Notes under the pieces: generated by a model
Told to the model about the DNA's origin: nothing
Databases searched by the model: none
The model's input: only the letters and a program-made list of their open reading frames with translations
Position numbers and translations under genes: made by a program
In this document: one piece after another, positions 1 to 13,444 of the stretch
Position numbering within the stretch: position 1 is the stretch's first letter
How the letters are laid out: the number at the start of each line of letters is the position of its first letter
Virus record (IMG/VR): IMGVR_UViG_2740892230_000033
DNA length: 14,669 nt
From: a virus
Taxonomy: Duplodnaviria > Heunggongvirae > Uroviricota > Caudoviricetes
Strand: one strand, 5' to 3'

Positions 1-339
1 ACAAAGCGACAGGTGATTCGTGATGCATGGCTGATACACCGACACAAAGGGACCATCAGCGCACTGCGCCGGGCCATTGAGCCGCTGGGATACCTCATTC
101 GTGTGTCTGAGTGGTGGGAGTTCGGCGGAGAACCGGGAACATTTACCGTTGAAGTCGGCACGCTGGACAGTGGCGTGACGGAGGAAATGTATCTGGAAAT
201 GGAGCGGTTGATTGCTGATGCCCGCCCGGTCAGCCGCCACATGACAGGGCTGAATATCATTCAGGAGATCCCGGGGGATATTTTCGCGGCGGCAGCAACT
301 TACGACGGTGAAGTCATTACCATTTATCCGGACGATTAA
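1..339 (+). CDS. P2 gpI-like baseplate/tail protein, C-terminal part; the frame is open to the window's 5' edge so the gene starts upstream
   Basis: ORF open from position 1, stop TAA at 337-339, lies immediately upstream of the tail fibre gene as in the P2 order I-H-G; family assignment is from position and recollection only. Confidence 0.55.
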   Translation, partial: TKRQVIRDAWLIHRHKGTISALRRAIEPLGYLIRVSEWWEFGGEPGTFTVEVGTLDSGVTEEMYLEMERLIADARPVSRHMTGLNIIQEIPGDIFAAAATYDGEVITIYPDD

Positions 340-341
340 GC

Positions 342-2373
342 ATGAGTACCACAACACGTAAATTTAAAACCATTATCACTGATACTGGTGCCAAAAAATT
401 AGCTCAGGCAGCCGCGCCAGATGGTAATCCTGTCCGCCTGACTCACATGGCCGTGGGCGACGGTGGCGGCACGTTGCCCACACCAGACAGTAAGCAGACC
501 CGTCTGGTGCATGAGGTGTGGCGACATACTGTTAATCGCGTCATCCTGGACGCAACACATCAGAACCGCATTATTGCGGAGCTGGTTATTCCTCCTGAAA
601 CGGGTGGATTCTGGATCCGGGAAATTGGTGTATTTGATGAGCACGGCGATTTAATCGCGGTGGGCAATACTGCCGAAAGTTACAAACCAACCGTTGCCGA
701 GGGGTCCGGACGTGCACAAACATTTCGCACCATTCTGACCGTATCCAGCACTGCCACCGTGGCGCTTACCGTGGATAACACCATGGTGATGGCCACAGTG
801 GATTACGTGAATGACAAACTGAAAGAACATGAACAGTCACGACGTCACCCGGACGCCTCGCTGACCGCAAAAGGCTTTGTTCAACTCAGTAGCGCCACTA
901 ACAGCACGTCTGAAGCACTGGCCGCAACGCCGAAAGCGGTCAAGACAGCCTATGACCTTGCTAACGGGAAATATACCGCNNNNNNNNNNTGCCACGACGG
1001 CACGAAAAGGAATAGCCCAGCTCAGTAGCGCCACCAACAGCGATTCAGAAACGCTGGCGGCAACACCAAAGGCGGTAAAGGCAGCCTATGACCTTGCTAA
1101 CGGGAAATATACCGCACAGGACGCCACGACGGCACAAAAAGGAATTGTCCAGCTCAGTAGTGCAACCAACAGCACATCTGAAACGCTTGCTGCAACACCG
1201 AAAGCAGTGAAAGCAGCTAATGACAATGCGAATGGTCGGGTACCTTCTGCCCGTAAGGTGAATGGTAAGGCGCTTTCGGCGGATATAACACTGACGCCGA
1301 AAGATATTGGTACGCTTAACTCAACAACAATGTCATTCAGCGGTGGTGCTGGTTGGTTCAAATTAGCAACGGTAACCATGCCACAGGCGAGTTCTGTTGT
1401 TTCAATTACGTTGATTGGTGGCGCTGGATTTAACGTCGGTTCACCTCAACAGGCAGGTATATCTGAACTTGTTTTGCGTGCAGGTAATGGTAATCCGAAG
1501 GGGATTACTGGTGCTTTATGGCAGCGCACATCGACAGGGTTTACAAATTTTGCCTGGGTCAATACATCTGGTGATACTTACGATATTTACGTTGCAATCG
1601 GAAATTATGCGACTGGTGTAAATATTCAATGGGATTATACCAGTAATGCCAGCGTGACGATTCATACGTCACCAGCATATTCTGCTAATAAGCCGGAAGG
1701 GTTAACGGACGGTACAGTTTATTCACTCTATACGCCATCAGAGCAGTTTTATCCGCCTGGCGCACCAATCCCGTGGCCATCGGATACCGTTCCGTCTGGT
1801 TATGCCCTGATGCAGGGGCAGACTTTTAACAAATCTGCCTACCCGAAACTTGCAGCCGCTTATCCGTCAGGCGTGATCCCTGATATGCGTGGCTGGACGA
1901 TTAAGGGCAAACCTGCCAGTGGTCGGGCCGTATTGTCTCAGGAACAGGACGGCATTAAATCGCATACCCACAGCGCCAGCGCATCCAGTACGGATTTGGG
2001 TACGAAAACCACATCGTCGTTTGATTACGGGACGAAAACAACCTCACTATTTGACTATGGGACCAAAACTACCAGTAACGACGGGAGTCACACGCATTCA
2101 ATACCAACATCAGATGGTGCAAACCAGGGGGGGAAAATTCCACTGACATCTGGGCGTCTGGCAACTCAATATACATCAGCAACAACAGGTTCCTCTGGCT
2201 CACATTCTCATACTGTAGGTATTGGTTCTCATCAGCACACTGTCGGTATTGGTGCACACACGCACTCCGTTGCGATTGGCTCACATGGACACACCATCAC
2301 CGTTAACGCTGCGGGTAACGCGGAAAACACCGTCAAAAACATCGCATTTAACTATATTGTGAGGCTTGCATAA
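342..2373 (+). CDS. H: P2 gpH-like tail fibre protein; the frame is broken by the N10 gap at 980-989 (track pieces 342..1028 and 877..2373)
   Basis: N-terminus [24 protein letters not shown] is typical of P2-type fibre N-termini; internal SSATNS[18 protein letters not shown] repeats; C-terminal HxH-rich segment ([33 protein letters not shown]); stop TAA 2371-2373 overlaps the start of the next gene. Confidence 0.85.
873..1240 (+). repeat. Three or more tandem coding repeats of about 100 bp in the tail fibre (unit encodes [32 protein letters not shown]); copy number is uncertain because the N gap falls inside the array
   Basis: Direct reading of the repeated nucleotide and peptide units at about 873-979, 1015-1116 and 1144-1236. 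Confidence 0.8.
980..989. other. N10 scaffold gap inside the tail fibre repeat array; shifts the reading frame
   Basis: Run of 10 N; flanking sequence belongs to the repeated SSATNS units. Confidence 0.95.
1999..2082 (+). repeat. About 2.5 copies of a 30-bp coding repeat (GTKTTSxFDY) in the distal tail fibre
   Basis: Peptide [25 protein letters not shown] and the matching nucleotide periodicity. Confidence 0.7.
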
Positions 2374-2951
2374 TGGCATTCAGAATGAGTGAACAATCAC
2401 GGACCATAAAAATTTATAATCTACTGACCGGAACCAATGAGTTTATTGGTGAAGGTGATGCATACATTCCACCTCATACAGGTCTGCCAGCAAACAGTAC
2501 CGATATTGCCCCGCCAGATATTCCGGCTGGCTTCGTGGCCGTTTTCAACAGTGATGAGGCATCGTGGCATCTCGTTGAAGACCATCGGGGTAAAACGGTT
2601 TATGACGTGGCATCAGGGGACTCGTTATTTATTTCTGAACTCGGTCCATTACCGGAAAATGTTACCTGGTTGTCGCCGTATGGAGAGTATCAGAAGTGGA
2701 ACGGCACATCCTGGGGGAAAGATGCAGAAGCAGAAAAACTGTTTCGGATAAGGGAGGCGGAAGAAACAAAAAACAGCCTGATGCAGGTAGCCAGTGAGCA
2801 TATTGCACCACTTCAGGATGCTATAGATTTAGATATTGCGACGGAGGAAGAGACATCGTTACTGGCTGCATGGAAGACATATCGAGTATTGTTGCATCGT
2901 GTTGATACAACAGTAGCAGCAGATATTGAGTGGCCAGTCGCCCCACAATAA
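2373..2951 (+). CDS. G: Tail fibre assembly chaperone (P2 gpG / Tfa family); the 3' end is duplicated after the N gap, second stop at 3097-3099
   Basis: 192 aa ORF, ATG overlaps the H stop (TAATG); N-terminus [34 protein letters not shown] resembles Tfa proteins; position directly after the fibre gene. Confidence 0.8.
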
Positions 2952-2959
2952 AAAGAAAA

Positions 2960-2969
2960 NNNNNNNNNN
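2960..2969. other. N10 scaffold gap; 2821-2959 is repeated at 2970-3108 with a few substitutions
   Basis: Direct comparison of flanks. Confidence 0.95.
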
Positions 2970-3103
2970 CGTAGATTTGGATATTGCGACGGAGGAAGAG
3001 GCATCGTTACTGGCTGCATGGAAGACATATCGGGTATTGTTGAATCGTGTTGATACAACAGTAGCAGAGGATGTTGAGTGGCCAGTCGCCCCACAATAAA
3101 AAG

Positions 3104-3135
3104 AAAAAGCCATCGATAGAAATATCGATGGCTTT
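3104..3135. terminator. Bidirectional rho-independent terminator between the convergent gpG and acetyltransferase genes
   Basis: AAAAA, then a perfect 10-bp stem GCCATCGATA / TATCGATGGC with loop GAAA, then TTT; A-tract and T-tract flank the hairpin so it can terminate on both strands. Confidence 0.8.
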
Positions 3136-3142
3136 ATGTACT

Positions 3143-3877
3143 CTATTTATACAATACAGCACCGCTCTTTTTAGTTATATATGTGCAGTTCGATGGTATA
3201 TCTTTATTTATAAAAGACATTGCACCTATTTTTACATTATCCCCAATTTTACGGGATAATCCAATGATGCAACAATTAGCTCCGATATCAACGTTGCTAC
3301 CAATTTTTACTCTTGAACCAGGTATGTCACCATCTATCTGTCCAATGGTCGTATTCTGTCGTAACACCAGATTTTCACCAGCATCAACAGCAAAATGAAC
3401 AACAATTCCAGCATNNNNNNNNNNACTACCAATTTTCACTCTTGAACCAGGCATGTCACCATCTATCTGTCCAATGGTAGTATTCTGTCGTAATACCAGA
3501 TTTTCACCCGCATCAACAGCAAAATGAACAACAATTCCAGCATGATGGGGAATTGTTAACCCTTTTCCAATATTTGCGCCCAATCCAATTTCGCAACCAA
3601 ATTTGTTAATTATTTTACTGTTTAACTTCTTGGCTGCTTTCTTATGTAATTTATTACCATTAATATACATTTCGTTAGCCAACCGCCACCAGAAAAGGAA
3701 ATTCCTGTTACGCTGCTTTTTCTCTCTTAAAAGCCTCCAGATATCCATACGTTTCCGCCGAATTACTTCATGTTTCCAGAAGTTTTTTAAATTAGTAGAG
3801 TTCCCAAATAAAACAAAGTGAATTGCCATTAGGTAAGACAGCACGATAATCTCCTTAATTATTATTTCAGACCACAC
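3143..3877 (-). CDS. Hexapeptide-repeat (left-handed beta-helix) O-acetyltransferase, WcaB/CysE-like; low-GC cargo gene. The true start is probably the internal GTG at 3844 (AAGGAG 6 nt upstream) or the ATG at 3829; the ORF is lengthened by the duplication around the N gap at 3415-3424
   Basis: Motifs GCEIGLGANIGKGLTIPHHAGIVVHFAVDAGENLVLRQNTTIGQIDG and NVDIGANCCIIGLSRKIGDNVKIGAMSF match the serine/colanic-acid acetyltransferase hexapeptide pattern; AT-rich relative to flanking phage genes. Confidence 0.7.
   Translation of the reverse strand: MWSEIIIKEIIVLSYLMAIHFVLFGNSTNLKNFWKHEVIRRKRMDIWRLLREKKQRNRNFLFWWRLANEMYINGNKLHKKAAKKLNSKIINKFGCEIGLGANIGKGLTIPHHAGIVVHFAVDAGENLVLRQNTTIGQIDGDMPGSRVKIGSXXXXAGIVVHFAVDAGENLVLRQNTTIGQIDGDIPGSRVKIGSNVDIGANCCIIGLSRKIGDNVKIGAMSFINKDIPSNCTYITKKSGAVLYK
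3415..3424. other. N10 scaffold gap; about 3297-3414 is repeated at about 3426-3543 with a few substitutions
   Basis: Direct comparison of flanks. Confidence 0.95.
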
Positions 3878-4000
3878 ATGTTATAAGGTTAAGAGATTAT
3901 AAAATCCTGTTGTTTATTATTCAAAAACAATTTTCTGAGAAGGACATACAACAGCAAGTCGCCAGTCACCTTCATCAGGAAATTGGCGACATACGTTAAA

Positions 4001-4495
4001 TCAGAGCAGCCCCTTAACTGAGCTGGCCGCGCTATTAAGGGATGATGTCACCTTATCTTTGAAGCCGGACAACATATCGCTGAACGATGAGGATTGCAGG
4101 CGCTCCCGCAAATCCTCATCACAGCGTTCAAGAGTCAGTGAAAATTCTATCTTTTTCGCCTTACCGTAGCGATCAAACTCGGAACGGGTCGTATTCGTTT
4201 CAGTCAGTACATACATGCCGTAAATCTGCCCGACACCATCAATCAGAGGCCAGGGCCGTCCTGTATATGCCTGCGTGGTCAGCAATGAAAGCGACACTTC
4301 GCCACCTGTAATTTCAGGATAAAGCACGCCGGAAAGCACAATGCGATCATCACCTGCACCGATATACTGCCAGCTTGCTGAACGGTTAACGCGTTCATTT
4401 TTCACATGCCGCCAGCTTTTGTTTTGCTGTAACTGCTGATGCGGCAATGTGCGCAGCTCAAAAACAAACATGCCGTAGATCATCATCATGACCAT
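4001..4495 (-). CDS. U: P2 gpU-like tail protein
   Basis: 164 aa; N-terminal FVFELRTLPHQQLQ and WPLIDGVGQIYGMYVL resemble the gpU family; sits immediately downstream of the tape measure gene on the minus strand. Confidence 0.8.
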   Translation of the reverse strand: MVMMMIYGMFVFELRTLPHQQLQQNKSWRHVKNERVNRSASWQYIGAGDDRIVLSGVLYPEITGGEVSLSLLTTQAYTGRPWPLIDGVGQIYGMYVLTETNTTRSEFDRYGKAKKIEFSLTLERCDEDLRERLQSSSFSDMLSGFKDKVTSSLNSAASSVKGLL

Positions 4496-4501
4496 GACTC
4501 C

Positions 4502-7500
4502 TCAATCTTTATCGTAAAAACTGCCACGTCCGGCACGGGCGCGCCGTTCCATCTCTGCCCTGACCATTTCACCGACCAGTTTCGCCAGTTCGCGGGGATT
4601 CTGCGTAACAACGTTATGCAGATGAACATGAATTTCACCACCAAATCCGGAGGCAACAGGCTCCCGGTTACGGGAAGTTGCAGGCACTGATGCTACTGGT
4701 GATCGTATGGCCTCCGCCACCGGGCGGGTGCTGGCCGCAACAACAGGGACCAGCGCCGGAGGCAGCGGAGCCGAGACCACGGGTGTGATATTAATTGCGG
4801 GGGCAGGCTTACTGACCTGCGCAATCTTCTGCTCCTGCCACTCCCCACGAACAGCAAGTGCGCGGGGCAGGTTCTTAAAGACAATATCGCCGGGGCCAAT
4901 GCGTTTTTTCGTCTCATCAACCAGCTTACCTGTGTTATCAGCAATTTTGCTGAGTCTGCGTAGCGTCCCGGTATTGCTGTCTGTGAGCGGTTTGTTGTCT
5001 TTGGGTTTATCACCTCCGGTGCCATTGCCATTTTCTACAGGCTTTGGCGGATTGATTTTCGCAATGTCTCCCTGAAACAGAGCAACCTTGTCCTGAAGAA
5101 TGGCCGCACGCTGTGCGTCTTCGATTTTCTTGCGCGCCCTTTCCGCTTCATCCGGAAGGACACCAAGTTTTTCAAGTATCCACGCCAGCGTATCCAGTAG
5201 CATTTTTGCAGGTGTCAGAACAAGTTGTAACGCACCGCCAAGAACGTTACCGAATACCTCGCCAGCACTGGTGCATTTATCCAGCGTTTCCTTGCTGGAC
5301 TCCATCGNNNNNNNNNNCACACCGAGTTTTTCAAGTATCCACGCCAGCGTATCCAGCAACATTTTTGCAGGCGTCAGAACAAGCTGTAACGCTCCACCAA
5401 GAACGTTACCGAATATCTCGCCAGCACTGGTACATTTATCCAGCGTTTCCTTGCTGGACTCCATCGGTGACAACAGCGATTTAAACCAGTTAAACACCAG
5501 GCTGATCCCGCTTCCGATTGCGTCAAAAACAGGGCCAAACCGTTCAAAGGTTTCACGCAACGGGGTCAGCCTTTCCATAATCCCGCTGAACACCCCGGCA
5601 AAAAATGCCCTGATGGGATCCCAGTATTTCCAGATAAGAACGGCAGCTCCGGCAAGCGCAGCAACGACAAGACCAACCGGACTGAACAACGCCCCGATAG
5701 CGCCTCCCAGTAAAGAAACGGAACCCGTCACCATTCCCCATAGCGCAGGCAACACCCTGACGACATTCATTGACCGGGTAAGAATGTCAAAACCAATACG
5801 CAAGGTGGCCAGCTTCCCGTAAAGCACCCCANNNNNNNNNNCACGATAAGACCAACCGGACTGAACAGCGCCCCGATAGCGCCACCCAGCAAAGAAACAG
5901 AACCCGTCACCATTCCCCACAGCGCAGGCAACACCCTGATGACATTCATTGACCGGGTAAGAATGTCGAAACCAAGACGCAAGGTGGCCAGCTTCCCGTA
6001 AAGCACCCCAATAACCAGCGACAACGAGCCAATCGTTGCAGTCATTGCCAGCAACGCACCGCCTGCTATCAGTAGCTGGCGCGTCAGTACCGGATGGGCC
6101 TGCGCCAGCGAGGTGATTTTTTCAAGCACCCGCGTGAGCCACTGCGTGACAGAACGCAGCGGACCGTCAACCAGATCACTGATGCGAATACGAAGACCTT
6201 CCCATGCGCTGTCGAGATTTTTCAGGTCTCCATCAAGATTATCGGCCATTACTTTTGCAACGCGATCGGCCTCTCCCCTTGCCCCCTGCAATTCTCTGGT
6301 CAGTTTTTGCAGTTCTCCTGAACCAGCCGCCGCAACAAGCGTCTGCAAACCAACGAACGCCTCTTCTCCGGCAATGTCCTTGAAGAAGGAGACCTGGTCC
6401 ACCTGTCCGTATTTTTGTGTCGCCTTATAGAGATCAAGCAGCACATCCTCCATCGGGCGCATTTTGCCTCTGGCGTCAGCAACTGACACCCCCAGCTCTT
6501 TCAGTGCATCAGCCGCAGCTTTTGGCGGTGATGCAAGGCGGGACAGACTTGCGCGCATGGCCGTACCAGCATCGCTTCCGCGAAGACCATTATTGGCAAG
6601 CATCCCGGCCATGGCCGCCGCTTCTTCAAGACTGATACCAAGTTTTGCGGCAACCGGACCGGTATACTTCATGGTTTCGCCCAGCGCGCGTAAATCAGTA
6701 TTGGTCCGGGTGAATGCTGCTGTCAGCGTATCGCCAACCCGGTCCATTTGATCGGCTGTCAGGTTGAACTGTGTGAGGATATTGGAGCCTATATCAGCCG
6801 TCTCGCCGAGTTCGACGCCACCTGCCAGCGCCATATTAAGAACACCGGGCAATGCGGCCTGAATGGCCTGCGGAGTAAAACCAGCCATTGCCAGAAAGCT
6901 CTGCCCACTGGCGGCATCACTCGCAGTAAACTGTGTTTCAGAACCAAGTTTTAACGCCTGCTCACGCAGCGCCTTAAACTGCGGGCTGTTTTTGTCGATT
7001 CGCGTCAGTGCCTGAACGCGGGACATCTCTTTGCCGAACCCGATCGCAGGCTGCAAAAAACGCCCGGCAGCATAGCCGCCAGCCGCTGCAGCACCAATTG
7101 CCAGCGCACCACCTGTTTTCAGTTTTCCCGCGGTTTCCTGCGCGCGCGAATACCGCTCACGCGCCCGCGTTACACGCGCAAGCGCCTGCCGTTCGCGTTC
7201 AAGCTGGTTGTTGTACTGTTCGGTGCGTCTGATGGCCTGCTGGATGGTGTTATCGCTGCCTGTCAGGGAAATGCCGTGGCGTTTCAGCTCTCCGCCAAGC
7301 TCCCGCATTTTCTGAATTTCCCGTGTGCGCGATTCATTCAGGCGTTCAAGCCGGGTGCTTAACTGCTGCATCAGCTTTTGTTGTTTTTCGCTGAGCACTG
7401 TACCCGTGCGTTGTAACTGATTAAGGGCGTTAAGCTGGCGTCGTGCTTTCACGATGCCAGCATCCGCTTTACTGACAGCGTCACGGGCGCGCTCAAATGA

Positions 7501-7656
7501 ACGCGCCTGACGCTCGAGATTTTTGATCGCCCCCTGCGTTCGCTGGATGGAGTCACCAAACTGCCCCATCAGGCGGCGGGCGTTTTCGGCAGGCCGGGTC
7601 AGCCTGTCAACGGCGCTGAAAGCGACCCGGATATCAAGAGTCTTCATTATCTGCAT
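4502..7656 (-). CDS. T: Tail tape measure protein (P2 gpT-like); reading frame broken twice by N gaps at 5308-5317 and 5832-5841 with duplicated flanks (track pieces 5767..7656 and 4502..5920)
   Basis: Long coiled-coil-rich N-terminal half, central glycine/alanine-rich hydrophobic segments and overall size typical of tape measure proteins; positioned between the E/E' chaperone and gpU. Confidence 0.85.
5308..5317. other. N10 scaffold gap; about 5159-5307 is repeated at about 5318-5466 with a few substitutions
   Basis: Direct comparison of flanks. Confidence 0.95.
5832..5841. other. N10 scaffold gap; about 5664-5831 is repeated at about 5842-6009 with a few substitutions
   Basis: Direct comparison of flanks. 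Confidence 0.95.
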
Positions 7657-8172
7657 TCCCGCTGCGAAGTGCCGCCCGCTCGCGCCAGCTAACCACTTCG
7701 CCGGGCGTCATCATGAAGATTTCGGCGGGCGACCAGTTAAAAATGGCGGCAATATCCGCCACCAGATCTTCGATGTGCTCAAAGCACACCAGGGTGATTA
7801 CGCTGCCGTCTCCTGCACGCTCTTCGCGCCAGAGTCTGGCTCGCTCATAAAATTTACAGCCACTGCGCACAACTGAATAAAATCGCGTGACGACATTTTT
7901 TTAATCATCACTTCATCCAGTCGTGGCGAGGTCACGCGAGGCAACAGCGTAAACATGGTATCCGCTTTCAGATTCAGCACATCAGACAGCGACAGACCAC
8001 GCAGGGATCCCGCCTGCTCAATAGCCCCGGTGATCTCCACATATGTGATTTTTTCGGCACCACGCTCAATTGGCCGGGAAAGTTTTACACCACGTTCGAC
8101 AGCCATATCCTCACCTGACGTCACATCATCCGCTACGGTGTTATTCCGGGTTTCAGTATCGATATCTTTCAT
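7634..8172 (-). CDS. E: Tail assembly chaperone gpE (7798..8172) and its -1 frameshift extension E' (frame of ORF 7634..7870), giving an E+E' fusion product
   Basis: Two overlapping minus-strand ORFs between the tube and tape measure genes; an A7 run at 7896-7902 in the E frame (ATT AAA AAA ATG) where a -1 slip enters exactly the frame of ORF 7634..7870. Confidence 0.7.
7896..7902 (-). other. Candidate programmed -1 ribosomal frameshift site (AAAAAAA) joining E to E'
   Basis: Frame arithmetic: E codons start at 7902 and 7899; shifting back one nucleotide gives codon starts congruent with the 7634..7870 ORF. Confidence 0.6.
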
Positions 8173-8227
8173 CAGTTGTCTCCTTTTCAGTCAGAGGCGA
8201 CGCACTGCGCCGCCTGCATATTACTTA

Positions 8228-8740
8228 TCAGCCAAGCCCAAGCGCGGAACGGATACGGTCAGGCACAATGTCCTTGCCGTCCTTCCGGTAGATGTGGTTC
8301 AACAGGTCGATTTCCCACAGCGGGCGATCGTTAACGCTCAGCTTGTAGTAGGTGTTTTTGACAGCGTAAGTGTGTGATGTGGCTTCGCCCTGTTTGGCTT
8401 CCCCCATATCAATTTCCGTCACACGCCCGCGCATCTCGATTTCATACAGATCGCTTTCTGCATCGGTGTAGTATTCACCCGCAAAACGCAGCAGCGTGCC
8501 GTCAATCGTGCCGCCATATTTAAGGAACAGCGCACGAACAGCTCCCCCCATGACAAAACTCGCATCAAGCGCGGAGTCGTCCAGACCGAGATCAATACTT
8601 ACCGCCCCCATCATGCCACCACCACGATAGCTGTCGGTTTTGCGCGTCAGTTTGGGCGGCGTGACGGATGTCACTTTACCCACTTCGTTTTCACCATCCA
8701 CAAACAACGTAAAAAAGCGAAGATGTTTTGGTACAGCCAT
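8228..8740 (-). CDS. FII: Major tail tube protein (P2 gpFII-like)
   Basis: 170 aa; PPKLTRKTDSYRGGGMMGAVSIDLGLDD and LRFAGEYY motifs match the P2 FII family as I recall it. Confidence 0.9.
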   Translation of the reverse strand: MAVPKHLRFFTLFVDGENEVGKVTSVTPPKLTRKTDSYRGGGMMGAVSIDLGLDDSALDASFVMGGAVRALFLKYGGTIDGTLLRFAGEYYTDAESDLYEIEMRGRVTEIDMGEAKQGEATSHTYAVKNTYYKLSVNDRPLWEIDLLNHIYRKDGKDIVPDRIRSALGLG

Positions 8741-10062
8741 CAGGCACCTCCCAGCACCGCAAATGCGGGACCAAAGAATTCATCAGTAAACGTCTGGTAA
8801 AGCTCCATGTCTTCCAGTGGCGGAACGGGCGTATATTTGTAGCGAATACGCACACGCCCCTGACGTAAATCCGTGGTGCTGTTATCCACCACGTCATACC
8901 AGCACTCCGCGCCTATCAGTTTCCCGGCAGTAACCAGTGAATCCAGCTTTGCCCTGATGGCACTGATTACATCCTTCACGTTCGCAGGCGTCAGTGGACT
9001 GTCGATGGTTTCAAACTGCGCTTCCGCAATTGAATCAGCCAGCACCTGTGCGGTTCGGGTATACACCTCAAAGATGTAGGCGTTCGTTTCCGGTGTGCGG
9101 TTGCCCCAGAAGCGGAACCCGTTGCGACGAATAATGGTCGTGATTTCTTTGTTGTTGAGGCTATTGGCATCGCTGTCTTCGGCCTGCAACGACCAGAACA
9201 CATGCCTGGACATTCCCAGCACATTTTTAACCGGAACGTTGGACAGCGATTTGTGCCAGCCCTGCTCATGGTCAATGCACGCACGAAGGCCGCACGCATA
9301 AGCAGGCGCGGGGAACGTTTCGTTTTTGCCACTTTNNNNNNNNNNCGACATCCCCAGCACATTTTTAACCGGAACGTTGGACAGTGATTTGTGCCATCCC
9401 TGCTCATGGTCAATGTACGCACGAAGGCCGCACGCATAGGCAGGCGCGGGGAACGTTTCGTTTTTGCCACTTTTCGGGTTGTAGGCGATGAAGTCCGGCC
9501 ATAAGAGCATCACCTCACGTTCGTTGAATTTCTGGCGGTAGGTAATCGCCTCAGCCATCGTGTTACAGCCGTGACATGAGGCATACACAAACGCGCGCAG
9601 TTTACCTGCAATCACGCACAGGGATTTTGTTACAGCCTCCGTGTCCAGCTCCGGCGCGGCCAGAATACGCGGACGGTATCCGATGCTTTCATCCTGCTCT
9701 GCAACAAGCAGCGCATACATCCCCGTATAGCTGCCGTCATCCTCAGAACCACCGATAACCAGTTGATCCTGCGTCTTTCCGTCTTCTTCTTTGTGTTCAG
9801 CCACGCGAACGACGATCACCTTTGTGCTCACCTGGTCTGCGATGGCCTTAAGCGCACGATAAAGCGTCCCCGTTGTCCCGCATTTTCCCAGCACGTCATT
9901 GACGCGGGTCAGCAGTGTGGGCTTATTCAGCGGGAACAGCTTCGCGTCCGCATCATCCGCCGTTGCCACGATACCGATAACGCTGGAATCAACATCGTTA
10001 ATCGCTGTTACCAGGTCGGTATTTTCCGTAACACGGGCACCATGAAAACGAGTTTCACTCAT
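8740..10062 (-). CDS. FI: Contractile tail sheath protein (P2 gpFI-like); lengthened by about 43 codons by the duplication around the N gap at 9336-9345
   Basis: Motifs FPLNKP, LRAFVYAS, EQGWHKSLSNV, RRNGFRFWGNRT and YKYTPVPPLE are characteristic of P2-type sheath proteins. Confidence 0.9.
   Translation of the reverse strand: MSETRFHGARVTENTDLVTAINDVDSSVIGIVATADDADAKLFPLNKPTLLTRVNDVLGKCGTTGTLYRALKAIADQVSTKVIVVRVAEHKEEDGKTQDQLVIGGSEDDGSYTGMYALLVAEQDESIGYRPRILAAPELDTEAVTKSLCVIAGKLRAFVYASCHGCNTMAEAITYRQKFNEREVMLLWPDFIAYNPKSGKNETFPAPAYACGLRAYIDHEQGWHKSLSNVPVKNVLGMSXXXXSGKNETFPAPAYACGLRACIDHEQGWHKSLSNVPVKNVLGMSRHVFWSLQAEDSDANSLNNKEITTIIRRNGFRFWGNRTPETNAYIFEVYTRTAQVLADSIAEAQFETIDSPLTPANVKDVISAIRAKLDSLVTAGKLIGAECWYDVVDNSTTDLRQGRVRIRYKYTPVPPLEDMELYQTFTDEFFGPAFAVLGGA
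9336..9345. other. N10 scaffold gap; about 9209-9335 is repeated at about 9346-9473 with a few substitutions
   Basis: Direct comparison of flanks. Confidence 0.95.
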
Positions 10063-10219
10063 AGCTTCAGCCCCTTGTATCCGTTAAATGATTCGGCAAC
10101 AATCATCACCCACCACGTGCGTAATCTCACCCCTGCGCCGTTCTCCCGCCACGGCGACAACAAAAAGCAGTAACCCCCTCCGCACGCACATGCGACCATG
10201 CCGCACAGGGAGGGAACAG

Positions 10220-11329
10220 ATGACCGATACCACCATGCAATTGCTCAGTCAGGGCACAGACCCCGTGAAAATGCCGGATTTTGATATTCTCGCGGAGGGT
10301 AAAACGCTGTCAGGCGTGGCAGAGCGCCTGATGAGCCTGTCACTGACCGACAACCGGGGATTTGAGGCGGACCAGCTCACCATCACGCTGGATGATGCGG
10401 ATGGTCAGTTGCAGCTACCGCCACGGGGCGCGCGCCTGACGGTTCTCATTGGCTGGAAAGGAGAACCGCTGACAGAAAAAGGCACTTACATTGTTGATGA
10501 AATCGCTCACGAAGGACCGCCGGACAGGCTGACTGTTTCAGCCAGAAGCGCAGATTTTCGGGATGAATTTAACGTTAAACGTGAGGTGTCCTGGCATGAT
10601 GTGACCGTTGAGCGCGTGGTATCTGCCATCGCTCATCGGTACGGTCTGAAACCGCAAATCAGCGAAATGCTGATGGATATCGAAATCGACCACGCCGACC
10701 AGACCGAAGAAAGCGATATGTCCTTCCTTACGCGCATGGCGGAAATGCTGGGCGCAATCACCACGGTAAAAAGCGGCAATCTGTTATTCATCATGCCAGG
10801 TGGTGGCGTGAACGCACAGGGCCAGCCGTTGCCCTCGTTCGCCATTACACGCAGCAGCGGCGATCGCCATCAGTTCCGTATTGCTGACCGCGAGGCGTAT
10901 ACGGGGGTACGCGCCTACTGGCTTGATCTTAATTACGGGAAAAAGAAAAAAGTCAGCGTGAAACGCCGTAAACCGCCAAAACCCAAAAAGGAGAAAAGCA
11001 GCAGCCGTGAAGGTGATTATATGGAAGGCGCGGAAGGCAATGTGTTTGTGTTACGCAAGACTTATCAGAACGAGCAGGCAGCAAGACGCGCAGCGGCGGC
11101 AAAGTGGCAGCAGCTACAACGCGGAGCCGCATCATTCTCCATCACGCTGGCATGTGGTCGTGCAGAACTCTACCCCGAAATGCATGGCACGGTAACAGGA
11201 TTTAAAAGCGAGATTGATAATCAGGACTGGATTATTGCAAAAGCCGAGCACACCATCGATAACAGCGGCTTTACCACGCAGCTTGAGCTTGAGGCAAAAA
11301 TCTCGGAATGGATAGCAGAAACAGAGTGA
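10220..11329 (+). CDS. D: P2 gpD-like tail protein (late control gene D family); transcribed divergently from the sheath gene
   Basis: ATG at 10220 preceded by GGAGGG; LSLTDNRGFEADQLTITLDDADGQLQLPPRGARLTVLIGW-type N-terminus resembles gpD family proteins; followed by ogr as in P2. Confidence 0.8.
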   Translation: MTDTTMQLLSQGTDPVKMPDFDILAEGKTLSGVAERLMSLSLTDNRGFEADQLTITLDDADGQLQLPPRGARLTVLIGWKGEPLTEKGTYIVDEIAHEGPPDRLTVSARSADFRDEFNVKREVSWHDVTVERVVSAIAHRYGLKPQISEMLMDIEIDHADQTEESDMSFLTRMAEMLGAITTVKSGNLLFIMPGGGVNAQGQPLPSFAITRSSGDRHQFRIADREAYTGVRAYWLDLNYGKKKKVSVKRRKPPKPKKEKSSSREGDYMEGAEGNVFVLRKTYQNEQAARRAAAAKWQQLQRGAASFSITLACGRAELYPEMHGTVTGFKSEIDNQDWIIAKAEHTIDNSGFTTQLELEAKISEWIAETE

Positions 11330-11371
11330 GCAACTTAGAATAGCAGCAGCACCACGTTAAGGGAGGTCGCT

Positions 11372-11731
11372 ATGTTCCGTTGTCCGCTTTGTGGCGCATC
11401 TGCCCGTATCCGCACCAGTCGTCCTGAAAATGATTCAAACACCGTGCGGCAAAAGTATTACCAGTGTAACAACCTGGAATGCGGCGTATGCTTCTCAACA
11501 CTGGAAGCTTTCCATAAATTCACATCAAAACACACCTCCGGCGTTCACTCTTCAGAAGGTATCCCGTGGCATGAGCTGCCAGCTTCACACAGGGGAAACA
11601 ATCAGATGANNNNNNNNNNTACATCGAAACACGCCTCCGGCGTTCACTCATCAGAAGGTATCCCATGGCATGATCTGCCAGCTTCACACAGGGGAAACAA
11701 TCAGATGAGTTTGCCTTTACCTCAGAATTAA
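11372..11731 (+). CDS. ogr: Ogr-type zinc-finger late transcription activator; about 30 codons are duplicated around the N gap at 11610-11619 (de-duplicated length about 86 aa)
   Basis: MFRCPLCGASARIRTSR...YYQCNNLECGVCF has the Cys-x2-Cys ... Cys-x4-Cys arrangement and N-terminal similarity to P2 Ogr; SD AAGGGAGG upstream. Confidence 0.85.
   Translation: MFRCPLCGASARIRTSRPENDSNTVRQKYYQCNNLECGVCFSTLEAFHKFTSKHTSGVHSSEGIPWHELPASHRGNNQMXXXXTSKHASGVHSSEGIPWHDLPASHRGNNQMSLPLPQN
11610..11619. other. N10 scaffold gap; about 11521-11609 is repeated at about 11620-11708 with a few substitutions
   Basis: Direct comparison of flanks. Confidence 0.95.
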
Positions 11732-11922
11732 CAGGCAGAATTGCCGGAGTAACAAAAAAGCGATAGATTACGCGCGGGTGCCTTTCGGCTGATGGTCGGA
11801 GGGAATACCCGAAGGCCAGATGTGGAAAGGCCCCGGAAAACATTTCTGTTTAACCGAGGCCCTAACATATCTACCTTAAGCAAGTGATAGGTTAGCGCCT
11901 CTCCAACAAAGGAGCAAGCGCT

Positions 11923-12055
11923 ATGTCGCAAAAATCGCTTACGGCCATCACGTTCTGCGTGACGGTAATCCTCATCATCTGGATGCTACACGGTTCGCTG
12001 TGTGAAATACGGATGAGCTTCTGGGGAGCGGAGTTTGCGGCGTTCTTACAGTGTA
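11923..12055 (+). CDS. Hok/Gef-family type I toxin homolog, copy 1; the 3' end runs into the N gap at 12056
   Basis: MSQKSLTAITFCVTVILIIWMLHGSLCEIRMSFWGAEFAAFLQC: transmembrane segment followed by the LCE[IL]R ... E[FI]AAF signature of Hok proteins; SD AAGGAG 8 nt upstream. Confidence 0.65.
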
Positions 12056-12065
12056 NNNNNNNNNN
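12056..12065. other. N10 scaffold gap between the two hok-like copies; here the flanks are paralog-level diverged, not near-identical
   Basis: Direct comparison of flanks. Confidence 0.95.
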
Positions 12066-12120
12066 CTTCTTACCTTCGCAAGTAGAAGGTTAGCGCCTCT
12101 CCTCTCAGGAGACAAGCGTT

Positions 12121-12261
12121 ATGACGCAAATTCCGTTAAAAACCCTGTTACTTTGCATAACTGCGGTAGCGATAATCTGGATCCTCCACACATCACCGTG
12201 CGAGTTACGATTCAGGTTTGCTGGCACGGAAATTGCGGCATTCTTACTATGTAATAAGTAA
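12121..12261 (+). CDS. Hok/Gef-family type I toxin homolog, copy 2 (46 aa, complete)
   Basis: MTQIPLKTLLLCITAVAIIWILHTSPCELRFRFAGTEIAAFLLCNK; SD AGGAGA 8 nt upstream; the leader GGTTAGCGCCTCTCC is conserved with copy 1. Confidence 0.7.
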   Translation: MTQIPLKTLLLCITAVAIIWILHTSPCELRFRFAGTEIAAFLLCNK

Positions 12262-12270
12262 GATAACCGC

Positions 12271-12292
12271 GACGGGGGAGTAATCCCCCGTC
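12271..12292 (+). other. Perfect 9-bp hairpin with GUAA tetraloop immediately 3' of hok-like copy 2; possible mRNA stability or fold-back element
   Basis: GACGGGGGA GTAA TCCCCCGTC read directly from the sequence. Confidence 0.6.
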
Positions 12293-12349
12293 AATCGGTT
12301 GCTAAGGTTGGTCGAAACGGCACCCTATCTCACAGACATGAACAACAAA

Positions 12350-12381
12350 CCCGCAGCGTAAAAACTGCGGGTTTTCTTTTT
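12350..12381 (+). terminator. Rho-independent terminator after the hok-like genes
   Basis: Stem CCCGCAG / CTGCGGG with 8-nt loop, followed by TTTTCTTTTT. Confidence 0.8.
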
Positions 12382-12466: not shown

Positions 12467-12510
12467 TTGTTATCATATCGGCAGCAGTAACCACACAAGA
12501 GGTGCCGCAA

Positions 12511-12708
12511 ATGACGCAAAATGTACGATGCAAAAATTGCAACAAACTACTTGCCCGCGCCTCATTTCACTACATTGAAATAAAATGTCCGCGCTGCAAA
12601 ACACTTAACCAGATAACGAGAGCCATCGAGCACCCCACACACATGAGGAGTTATGACCGTGGGGATCGCAATCCAGCACCAACCAGCACATACACCGGAA
12701 CACACTAA
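12511..12708 (+). CDS. com: Com-like zinc-finger translational activator (phage Mu Com homolog)
   Basis: MTQNVRCKNCNKLLARASFHYIEIKCPRCKTL...EHPT closely matches the Mu Com pattern RCKNCNKLL...HIEIRCPRCK...EHPT; SD AAGAGG 9 nt upstream of the ATG at 12511; the 3' end overlaps the start of the next gene. Confidence 0.75.
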   Translation: MTQNVRCKNCNKLLARASFHYIEIKCPRCKTLNQITRAIEHPTHMRSYDRGDRNPAPTSTYTGTH

Positions 12709-13444
12709 GGTTTATCAGACTGACAATGCCACGCTCTGTCGTGGGAATGCGCTGGAAATATTGCCGCTGATTGAGCCAGAAAGCATTGATGCCTTAATCA
12801 CTGACCCGCCTTACAGTTCGGGTGCGACACACAAGGCCGGACGCACCAACCAGGGCAGCCATGCAAAATATCTGAACGGCGAGAACCTTCACCGCTTTGA
12901 TGGGTTCGCGGGTGAAAACATGGACGCCCGTTCGTGGGCTTACTGGACACAATTATGGATGGCACAGGCACACCGCGCAGTCAGGCCGGGCGGTTATGCC
13001 CTGGTATTTACTGACTGGCGACAACTACCAGCTTTAACCGATGCGTTTCAGGCCAGTGGCTTTACATGGCGCGGCATCATTGCGTGGAACAAGGGGAGGG
13101 GGTCACGAACACCACATACCGGGTATTTCCGGCATCAGTGCGAATACATCGTCTGGGGCAGCAAAGGCCATTTAGATAAATCGCCTTCGGGACCGTTCGA
13201 CGGCTGCATGACGTTCCCGGTTATCCCGTCAAAGAAAATGCACCCGACCGGAAAACCAGAAGAACTAATGGTGGAACTGGTCAGGACTGTGAATAGTGGC
13301 GGGACAATCCTCGATCCTTTTATGTGGTCAGGGACAACGGGTGTGGCTGCACTGAAAGCAGGACGCAAATTTATTGGTATAGAAACCAGTGATCATTATT
13401 TTGATGTAGCAACACAACGGCTCAAAACGGCGATCGAACCATAA
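12653..13444 (+). CDS. Beta-class amino (N6-adenine or N4-cytosine) DNA methyltransferase; the start may be the GTG at 12659 (GAGGAG 8 nt upstream) rather than the ATG at 12653
   Basis: DPPY (motif IV) near the N-terminus and DPFMWSGTTG (motif I, AdoMet binding) near the C-terminus; this order is typical of the beta subgroup. Confidence 0.85.
   Translation: MTVGIAIQHQPAHTPEHTKVYQTDNATLCRGNALEILPLIEPESIDALITDPPYSSGATHKAGRTNQGSHAKYLNGENLHRFDGFAGENMDARSWAYWTQLWMAQAHRAVRPGGYALVFTDWRQLPALTDAFQASGFTWRGIIAWNKGRGSRTPHTGYFRHQCEYIVWGSKGHLDKSPSGPFDGCMTFPVIPSKKMHPTGKPEELMVELVRTVNSGGTILDPFMWSGTTGVAALKAGRKFIGIETSDHYFDVATQRLKTAIEP

Follow-up and report, generated by a model that had tools for sequence, protein, structure and literature searches.

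Why do the tail genes of a P2-like prophage change strand twice, leaving the block from the sheath gene to gene U pointing against its neighbours? The 14,669-nucleotide stretch of Caudoviricetes DNA held as IMG/VR record IMGVR_UViG_2740892230_000033 (hereafter the window, at its full length) carries the baseplate and tail fibre genes I, H and G on the plus strand; an acetyltransferase gene and then U, T, E'/E, FII and FI on the minus strand; and D and the late activator gene ogr again on the plus strand. In the P2 record, by contrast, FI-FII-E-E'-T-U-D form a single F operon that is co-directional with V-G. An earlier note had read the gene identities, the strands and the 157-bp spacer between the divergent FI and D genes (10063-10219) as we do, and Pfam matches and coordinates confirm them. 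It had left two explanations standing: a genuine inversion that uncouples D from the F operon and needs a promoter for each divergent unit, or a chimeric assembly. The tail block is truly inverted relative to P2. The host gene flk is the last gene of the window, and thus the end of the prophage lies inside it. We consider it very probable that the window holds the last part, with the tail genes, of an unremarkable P2-family prophage of the P88-like (Xuanwuvirus) type, lying beside flk, an explanation that takes in the arrangement, a single old inversion and two promoters sharing one activator site.

The inverted block in closed genomes and isolated phages

The sequence of the window was scaffolded from nine contigs, with eight runs of ten N between them, and the first alternative is that contigs of two related P2-like prophages were joined in opposite orientation, making the strand switches unreal. 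Duplicated ends of 89-169 bp, differing by 5-7%, flank six of the eight gaps (2960, 3415, 5308, 5832, 9336 and 11610) and suggest more than one related copy; moreover, the switch between G and the acetyltransferase gene lies on a contig of just 445 bp (2970-3414) with a gap at either end. Both switches nevertheless fall in uninterrupted sequence rather than at N gaps, as the earlier note had said, though the left one does so on this short contig, and closed genomes and P88 can be aligned with both contigs without a break. The 445-bp contig aligns over its whole length, at 97.1% identity, with the closed Escherichia coli chromosome NZ_AP038980. The 2264-bp contig bearing the FI/D switch matches the same chromosome at about 98% over 9346-11331, and phage P88 (NC_026014) over its full length. 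The deposited annotations of the closed chromosome and of P88 give the order and strands seen in the window.

The same arrangement is common. At least 80% of the whole window is matched in one place in 31 complete E. coli genomes. A 1.1-kb probe spanning the FI/D junction found it in 1355 of 5426 complete E. coli genomes; E. coli 55989 is one of those with 100% identity. The G/acetyltransferase junction occurs in 530 complete genomes. Among the IMG/VR contigs, 80 encode a D protein with at least 99% identity to that of the window, and in all 80 FI lies on the strand opposite to D. With the same order annotated in closed chromosomes and isolated phages, we give the chimeric assembly practically no chance of being the explanation.

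What, then, do the overlaps at the gaps represent? Each overlap closes with about 30 or more identical bases (34-43 in those printed). When the N run and one overlap copy are deleted, intact open reading frames (ORFs) are regained for T (938 residues), FI (394 residues) and the acetyltransferase, a further point against a misjoined scaffold. The stop codon of G stands at 2951 in the left overlap copy and at 3099 in the right one. At the two remaining gaps (980 and 12056), a search of the flanking ends detected no overlap. The overlaps look like the contig ends of two diverged P88-like prophage copies, or of strain variants, that the scaffolder left unmerged. Up to three FI/D junctions occur per closed genome, and because several P88-like places per genome are common, the two-copy reading is plausible; the mismatches probably stem from the presence of several related prophages, at least two, in the source genome. 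Two diverged copies, as hinted at in the earlier note, would plausibly account for the overlap mismatches but not for the orientation: the effect of diverged copies is limited to fine-scale sequence and has no bearing on gene order.

The arrangement is also compatible with a working phage, since P88, isolated after induction, is able to lyse E. coli (PMC5285337), and PhiSM, a related phage of Citrobacter, is temperate and active (PMC6456863). A genome scan can thus treat the tail-gene orientation as correct and typical rather than as an alarm; the rearrangement does not disable the prophage. The order is already known as data, in public annotated phages and in roughly one in four finished E. 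coli genomes. Searches of the available literature, with the P88 and PhiSM papers among it, turned up no account of the inversion or of a bidirectional promoter between FI and D.

Distribution, age and boundaries of the inversion

How far does the inverted order extend, and how old is it? We scanned a D-protein alignment against one genome per bacterial species and classified the loci by the relative orientation of FI and D. FI is divergent from D in every one of the 61 genome loci whose D protein is 61-98% identical to that of the window, and the two genes are collinear in all 14 resolvable loci whose D protein is at most 54% identical. The hosts of the divergent loci include Salmonella, Klebsiella, Enterobacter, Kosakonia, Serratia, Erwinia, Pantoea, Pectobacterium, Brenneria, Symbiopectobacterium, Edwardsiella, Xenorhabdus, Photorhabdus, Providencia, Morganella, Yersinia and Hafnia, among others. 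Annotated phages fall on the same two sides. The inverted block is present in Salmonella phage SEN5 (Senquatrovirus; annotated record) and in the Klebsiella phages Kp4871-3 (Reginaelenavirus) and Kp4847-1 (Reipivirus), and Fels-2 and Escherichia phage 500465-1 (Wadgaonvirus) are collinear. A contig labelled Vagococcus sp., a Gram-positive organism (NZ_JBQPOM010000071), carries a 98% identical D protein and the full inverted block; it probably represents contamination or a mislabelled assembly. Far from being rare, as the earlier note had implied, the inverted order is the standard for a whole Peduoviridae clade.

Neighbour-joining trees of D, FI, FII and U each place the divergent loci in one group, with no collinear locus inside it; these trees carry no bootstrap support. 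Collinearity also holds in the more distant phages Ralstonia RSA1, Mannheimia phiMhaA1 and Vibrio MAR, and is therefore the ancestral state. Because the inverted loci form one clade in all four trees, the sequences most likely record a single old inversion, fixed in one clade of Enterobacterales phages. For the arrangement itself, and for its assignment to a clade, we regard the case as close to certain. The relative orientation of FI and D also offers a simple and robust annotation marker that separates the P88, SEN4, Reginaelenavirus and Reipivirus clade from P2-, 186- and Fels-2-type phages. Together with the promoter pair proposed below, the inversion makes a modest point of comparative genomics, and one that will not surprise a P2 specialist.

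Could the block instead be a recent or reversible element, switched at the strain level by an invertase of the Gin/Cin type? The Gin, Cin and Hin segments of Mu, P1 and P2-like phages resemble the present case in that an inversion lies beside tail fibre genes, and a DNA invertase gene adjoins the fibre genes of P88 and of Fels-2, at this very cargo locus. Those segments, however, are small, reversible, driven by an invertase and bounded by crossover sites, whereas the block in the window spans 6 kb and is fixed. An ORF and Pfam survey of the window found no invertase gene. Inverted repeats, which recombination might have left at the ends of the block, were looked for and not found, as expected for an old event. 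Only one orientation occurs across the window, the 80 IMG/VR loci, the 61 genome loci and four phage genera. In P88 itself, the inverted alternative fibre genes are confined to the fibre segment beside the invertase. Finally, the flanking proteins have diverged to about 61% identity with the order kept, which argues that the event is old and fixed. The chance that a switch of this kind accounts for the block is, in our estimation, very small.

Where were the ends of the inverted segment? In collinear relatives, a TGT-N12-[A/C]CA element lies some 77-86 nt upstream of the FI start in 15 of 17 loci, the annotated PF site of P2 included. Spacers of the inverted clade, with one exception, have the centre of the equivalent element 80.5-88.5 nt from the FI start. 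With the distance to FI similar in the two groups, the PF control region moved with the block, and the break on this side occurred upstream of it. The second break fell at the U/D boundary. In the collinear phages P2, Fels-2 and 500465-1, U and D abut or overlap by 1-4 nt, whereas the N-terminal 12-18 residues of D (window 10220-10275) cannot be aligned among members of the inverted clade or with P2 D. Such an N-terminus fits the idea that the D start was rebuilt after a break at the old U/D overlap. On the opposite flank, the boundary of the inversion at the level of the clade is the 3' side of U (3878-4000) and not the strand switch at 3099-3142 that the earlier note had taken as its junction; the acetyltransferase gene belongs to a cassette with the H C-terminus and G rather than to the inverted tail block. 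In the history that we propose, the segment from the PF control region through FI-FII-E/E'-T-U was inverted once, long ago, from an ancestral P2-type order; the U 3' end of the block now meets the fibre genes head-on at a variable cargo locus.

The FI-D spacer and its predicted late promoters

How can D, cut off from its operon, be expressed together with the rest of the tail? Across the 61 distinct FI-D spacers, which are 140-167 bp long, 57 contain exactly one T[GC]T-N12-ACA, always at the same position. An alignment of the spacers that makes no use of the motif gives the same picture: conservation reaches 90% or more in the T.T and ACA columns, and the inner twelve positions vary freely. 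The consensus of Ogr-dependent promoters is TGT-N12-ACA (PMC3931495), and conserved half-sites around a variable N12 are the signature by which a site of the Ogr/Delta family would be recognised. In the window, the predicted activator site is TCT-CCCGCCACGGCG-ACA (10142-10159; extended form GTTCT-N12-ACAACAAAAAG, 10140-10168), with one change in the left half-site; the sister genera have TGT at the same position. Comparison with these genera, rather than a search for the exact consensus, is what revealed the TCT site.

The geometry around the site is conserved as well. An nAnnAT hexamer starts exactly 35 nt beyond the edge of the site on both sides, in 55 of the 57 spacers on the FI side and in 43 of the 57 on the D side, where a TG upstream of the hexamer and a GC-rich (guanine- and cytosine-rich) block are also conserved. 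In Ogr/Delta-dependent promoters, the dyad element is centred near -55, a -10-like hexamer stands about 45 nt from the centre of the site and the -35 region is poor; the hexamer offsets on both sides of the spacer site agree with this layout, and in P2, the PF hexamer GAAAAT starts 36 nt beyond the site edge. For the window, the conserved offsets predict a leftward FI promoter with the -10 hexamer GATGAT (10102-10107, minus strand) and a start near 10095, and a rightward D promoter with the extended -10 sequence TGcGACCAT (10191-10199, plus strand), whose upstream TG is among the conserved positions, and a start near 10206. The two predicted starts are about 111 nt apart, which is the spacing of the PP and PO starts of P2 (3016 and 3127), and in the P2 record these two start sites flank a single annotated activator site. 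The P88 spacer between P and O (terminase and scaffold; 154 bp) contains the same extended motif, GTTCT-N12-ACAACAAAAG.

Because Ogr-type sites are dyad-symmetric, and because one P2 site serves both PP and PO, we infer that one site could serve two promoters here. The old PF activator site travelled with the block and now adjoins D; as a single dyad-symmetric spacer site, it would activate two late promoters, leftward for FI-FII-E/E'-T-U and rightward for D and ogr, so that D and the downstream ogr gene would constitute a new late unit. The gap between D and ogr in the window is 43 bp and contains no predicted terminator; in P88 the two genes are likewise only about 43 bp apart. Binding of Ogr to the site, the two transcription starts and the co-transcription of D with ogr are predictions of this model, which is the best-supported mechanism and which we consider probable. 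The requirement of a promoter for each divergent unit, set out in the earlier note, thus has comparative evidence for both units within the spacer.

Several points weigh against such a bidirectional promoter. An exact search of the window for TGT-N12-ACA gave two matches in coding regions and none in the spacer. T[GC]T-N12-ACA as written is missing from 4 of the 61 spacers, and nAnnAT is missing at the exact D-side offset in 14 of the 57. The window's -10 sequence on the D side, GACCAT, is weak, and the predicted D transcript would have a short leader of about 14 nt. The start codons of D in related loci were picked by a heuristic, and conservation among related spacers is partly a matter of shared ancestry.

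These observations leave some room for the alternative that D lies outside the control of the shared site and is transcribed from an Ogr-independent promoter, or from an upstream start antisense to FI, with the site serving FI only. The D-side -10 is the weaker and less conserved of the two (43 against 55 of the 57 spacers), and the distance from the site to the D start codon (55.5-82.5 nt) is more variable than that to the FI start codon (78.5-88.5 nt). A sigma-70 scan found no convincing promoter in the spacer, no strong one on the plus strand, and no enrichment over shuffled sequence, a result that is expected for activator-dependent promoters and uninformative about them. However, the D-side hexamer stands at the same +35 offset as its FI-side counterpart, with its conserved TG and GC-rich block; the same symmetrical layout is annotated for P2 PP/PO; and D, as a structural baseplate protein, is needed at the same time as the products of FI-U. 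We therefore regard independent transcription of D as unlikely, and favour the shared Ogr-type site with two divergent late promoters.

Taking the inversion and the promoters together, we lean, slightly better than evenly, towards a joint reading in which the inversion defines a large Enterobacterales branch of the Peduoviridae and may have been tolerated because a dyad-symmetric PF site, once placed beside D, could act as a second bidirectional region in the style of PP/PO. If this is true, D and ogr would be a new late unit that feeds back on Ogr, and the locus would be a tidy case of an operon split by inversion and kept functional by a symmetric activator site.

Other observations concern the same motif and the same genes. 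In P88, there seem to be only two Ogr-type sites outside coding sequence, between P and O and between FI and D (regions 11932-12085, 16759-16895 and 17900-18000 were considered for this observation). P88 has neither an intergenic break nor the motif before V, unlike P2 with its separate PV promoter, and the stretch of about 13 kb from O to G in P88 may be one late unit. The possibility that the FI-D spacer is a copy of the P88 P-O spacer was rejected, as their similarity is at the level of the motif only (z-score about 3.7). A third exact match to GTTCT-N12-ACAAC occurs inside T (5224-5245, minus strand; P88 26603-26624), in the direction of transcription, where 0.06 would be expected in the window. 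It was set aside as probably a chance occurrence rather than an internal promoter for U; its ACAAC half is lost in the diverged duplicate across the gap at 5308. Finally, the closed O103:H2 genome L001 (13677-15144) has an insertion between D and ogr, a gene of the ParA family that runs on the opposite strand, so that the D-ogr linkage is not universal within the genus.

The cargo locus, the remaining genes and known systems

The region between H and U has a history of its own. Window 1318-3836, comprising the H C-terminus, G and the acetyltransferase gene, is 91% identical to the stf-tfa-acetyltransferase cassette of P1-like phage JL22, in which the acetyltransferase gene converges on the fibre genes; across JL22 and phage vB_EcoM-Ro157c2YLVW, identity to the cassette of the window is 91-93%. 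The best matches of the 445-bp junction contig, at 98%, are on plasmid records of roughly 72-100 kb. Judged by these matches, the H tip, G and the acetyltransferase gene are a mobile receptor-binding module that carries a low-GC acetyltransferase. The site itself is variable, holding an invertase and alternative fibre segment in P88, nothing in SEN5 and the acetyltransferase gene in the window.

The gene in question (3143-3829, minus strand; GC content 35-40%) encodes an LbetaH (hexapeptide) acetyltransferase and contains the N gap and duplicate at 3415. Its Pfam Hexapep match is below threshold, at 24.1 bits against a cut-off of 27; closed genomes annotate it as LbetaH or serine O-acetyltransferase. 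Upstream of it, a consensus scan gives a sigma-70-like promoter, TTGAAT-17-TATAAT (3896-3924, minus strand), with 10 of 12 matches. Between the convergent G and acetyltransferase genes lies a hairpin with a 13-bp stem (3106-3135), with predicted folding free energies (dG) of -19.5 kcal/mol on the plus strand and -18.8 on the minus strand (z-scores -6.9 and -6.5) and a U-run on the minus-strand transcript; it is likely a bidirectional terminator separating the two genes. A second hairpin (3958-3990, minus strand; dG -22 kcal/mol, z-score -3.6) directly follows the U stop codon and precedes UUGCUGUUGU. It is weak evidence for a possible end of the FI-U transcript.

The remaining genes are those of a P2-family contractile tail module, with FI, FII, E/E', T, U, D and Ogr/Delta all scoring above the curated Pfam cut-offs. 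Reading leftward from the spacer, the inverted block consists of the sheath gene FI (8740-10062, minus strand; Pfam sheath domains, with the N gap and duplicate at 9336); the tail tube gene FII (8228-8740, minus strand; Phage_tube, E-value 2e-45); E and its extension E' (7634-8172, minus strand); the tape measure gene T (4502-7656, minus strand; PhageMin_Tail, E-value 1.6e-56, with two N gaps with duplicated ends); and U (4001-4495, minus strand; Phage_P2_GpU, E-value 5.5e-39). E occupies 7798-8172, and E' extends it in the -1 frame to 7634. A slippery heptamer, A_AAT_TTT, stands in the E frame at 7855-7849 (minus strand), and the -1 frame runs from there into the ORF containing the Phage_P2_GpE domain (7634-7870). 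As is typical of the P2 family, E/E' is predicted to be produced through a -1 frameshift at this heptamer.

On the plus strand, the 3' part of the baseplate gene I (13-339) encodes a protein 100% identical to 'phage tail protein I' of the closed O103:H2 genome. The tail fibre gene H (342-2373) has its frame broken by the N gap at 980-989, and its C-terminal half is 91% identical to stf of JL22. The N-terminal part of H contains repeated collar motifs around the gap at 980, and its C-terminus (1900-2373) has histidine-rich tandem motifs and repeated DYGTKTTS units at the fibre tip. The fibre assembly gene G (2373-3099; ORF 2373-2951) matches Caudo_TAP (E-value 6e-40), and the 138 bp at its end recur beyond the N gap. 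Beyond the spacer, the baseplate hub gene D (10220-11329) matches Phage_GPD and is 99% identical to D of P88 and of the O103:H2 genome, and the ogr-type late activator gene (11372-11731) matches Ogr_Delta (E-value 4e-14) and contains the N gap and duplicate at 11610.

Between ogr and flk, as annotated in the O103:H2 genome, lie a hok/gef-type toxin ORF (11923-12093, broken by the gap at 12056) and a small Com-like regulator gene (12502-12708) that overlaps a DNA methyltransferase gene (12653-13444). The regulator and methyltransferase at the prophage end resemble a com/mom-style pair of Mu. Strong hairpins occur at 12270-12293 and 12347-12374.

How does the window compare with known systems? 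The closest is P88 (Xuanwuvirus, Peduoviridae), which agrees with the window in gene order and strand all the way from I to ogr. Its genome aligns with 64% of the window, at a nucleotide identity of 93.6% (window 1-12381), its D and FI proteins are 99-100% identical, and its FI-D spacer is identical but for 1 nt. It differs in carrying an invertible alternative fibre segment and a DNA invertase between G and U, where the window has the acetyltransferase gene, and in having an H C-terminus and G of another type (G is just 42% identical). The window has the Xuanwuvirus order, namely I-H-G, cargo, U-T-E'-E-FII-FI in reverse and D-ogr; the identity criterion for the genus is about 70% or more over the full genome, of which the window spans about 13 kb of prophage, with the head, lysis and early regions outside it. 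Senquatrovirus (SEN4/SEN5), Reginaelenavirus and Reipivirus share the inverted FI-U block, the divergent D, a spacer of 153-157 bp and the T[GC]T-N12-ACA site, and differ in that their D proteins are 63-73% identical to that of the window, their hosts are others and, in SEN5, G and U have no cargo between them. The xenorhabdicin tailocin locus xnp1 of Xenorhabdus was considered as a further instance and rejected, as its variable region, placed between the sheath and fibre genes in its published description, indicates the collinear type.

The P2 F operon shows the collinear order. It contains a homologous gene set in the same internal order, with the E/E' frameshift arrangement kept, and its activator site lies 82.5 nt from FI by the coordinates of the record, compared with 88.5 nt in the window; protein identity to the window is only 34-49%. 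In P2, FI-U and D are co-directional with V-G and the start of D abuts the end of U, a one-strand arrangement that Fels-2 and 500465-1 share, whereas in the window FI-U is inverted and D stands apart, followed by ogr. The FI-D spacer resembles the P2 PP/PO region. In both, divergent late units lie about 155-175 bp apart around one central dyad-type site, with starts about 55 nt to either side that are annotated for P2 and predicted for the window. The genes controlled are others in P2 than the sheath-to-U and D-ogr units of the window, whose promoter function is a prediction, and the FI-D and P-O spacers have little sequence in common beyond the motif. If the prediction is correct, the late genes of P88-type phages would run from two shared activator sites, one between P and O and one between FI and D, in place of the three sites and four promoters of P2.

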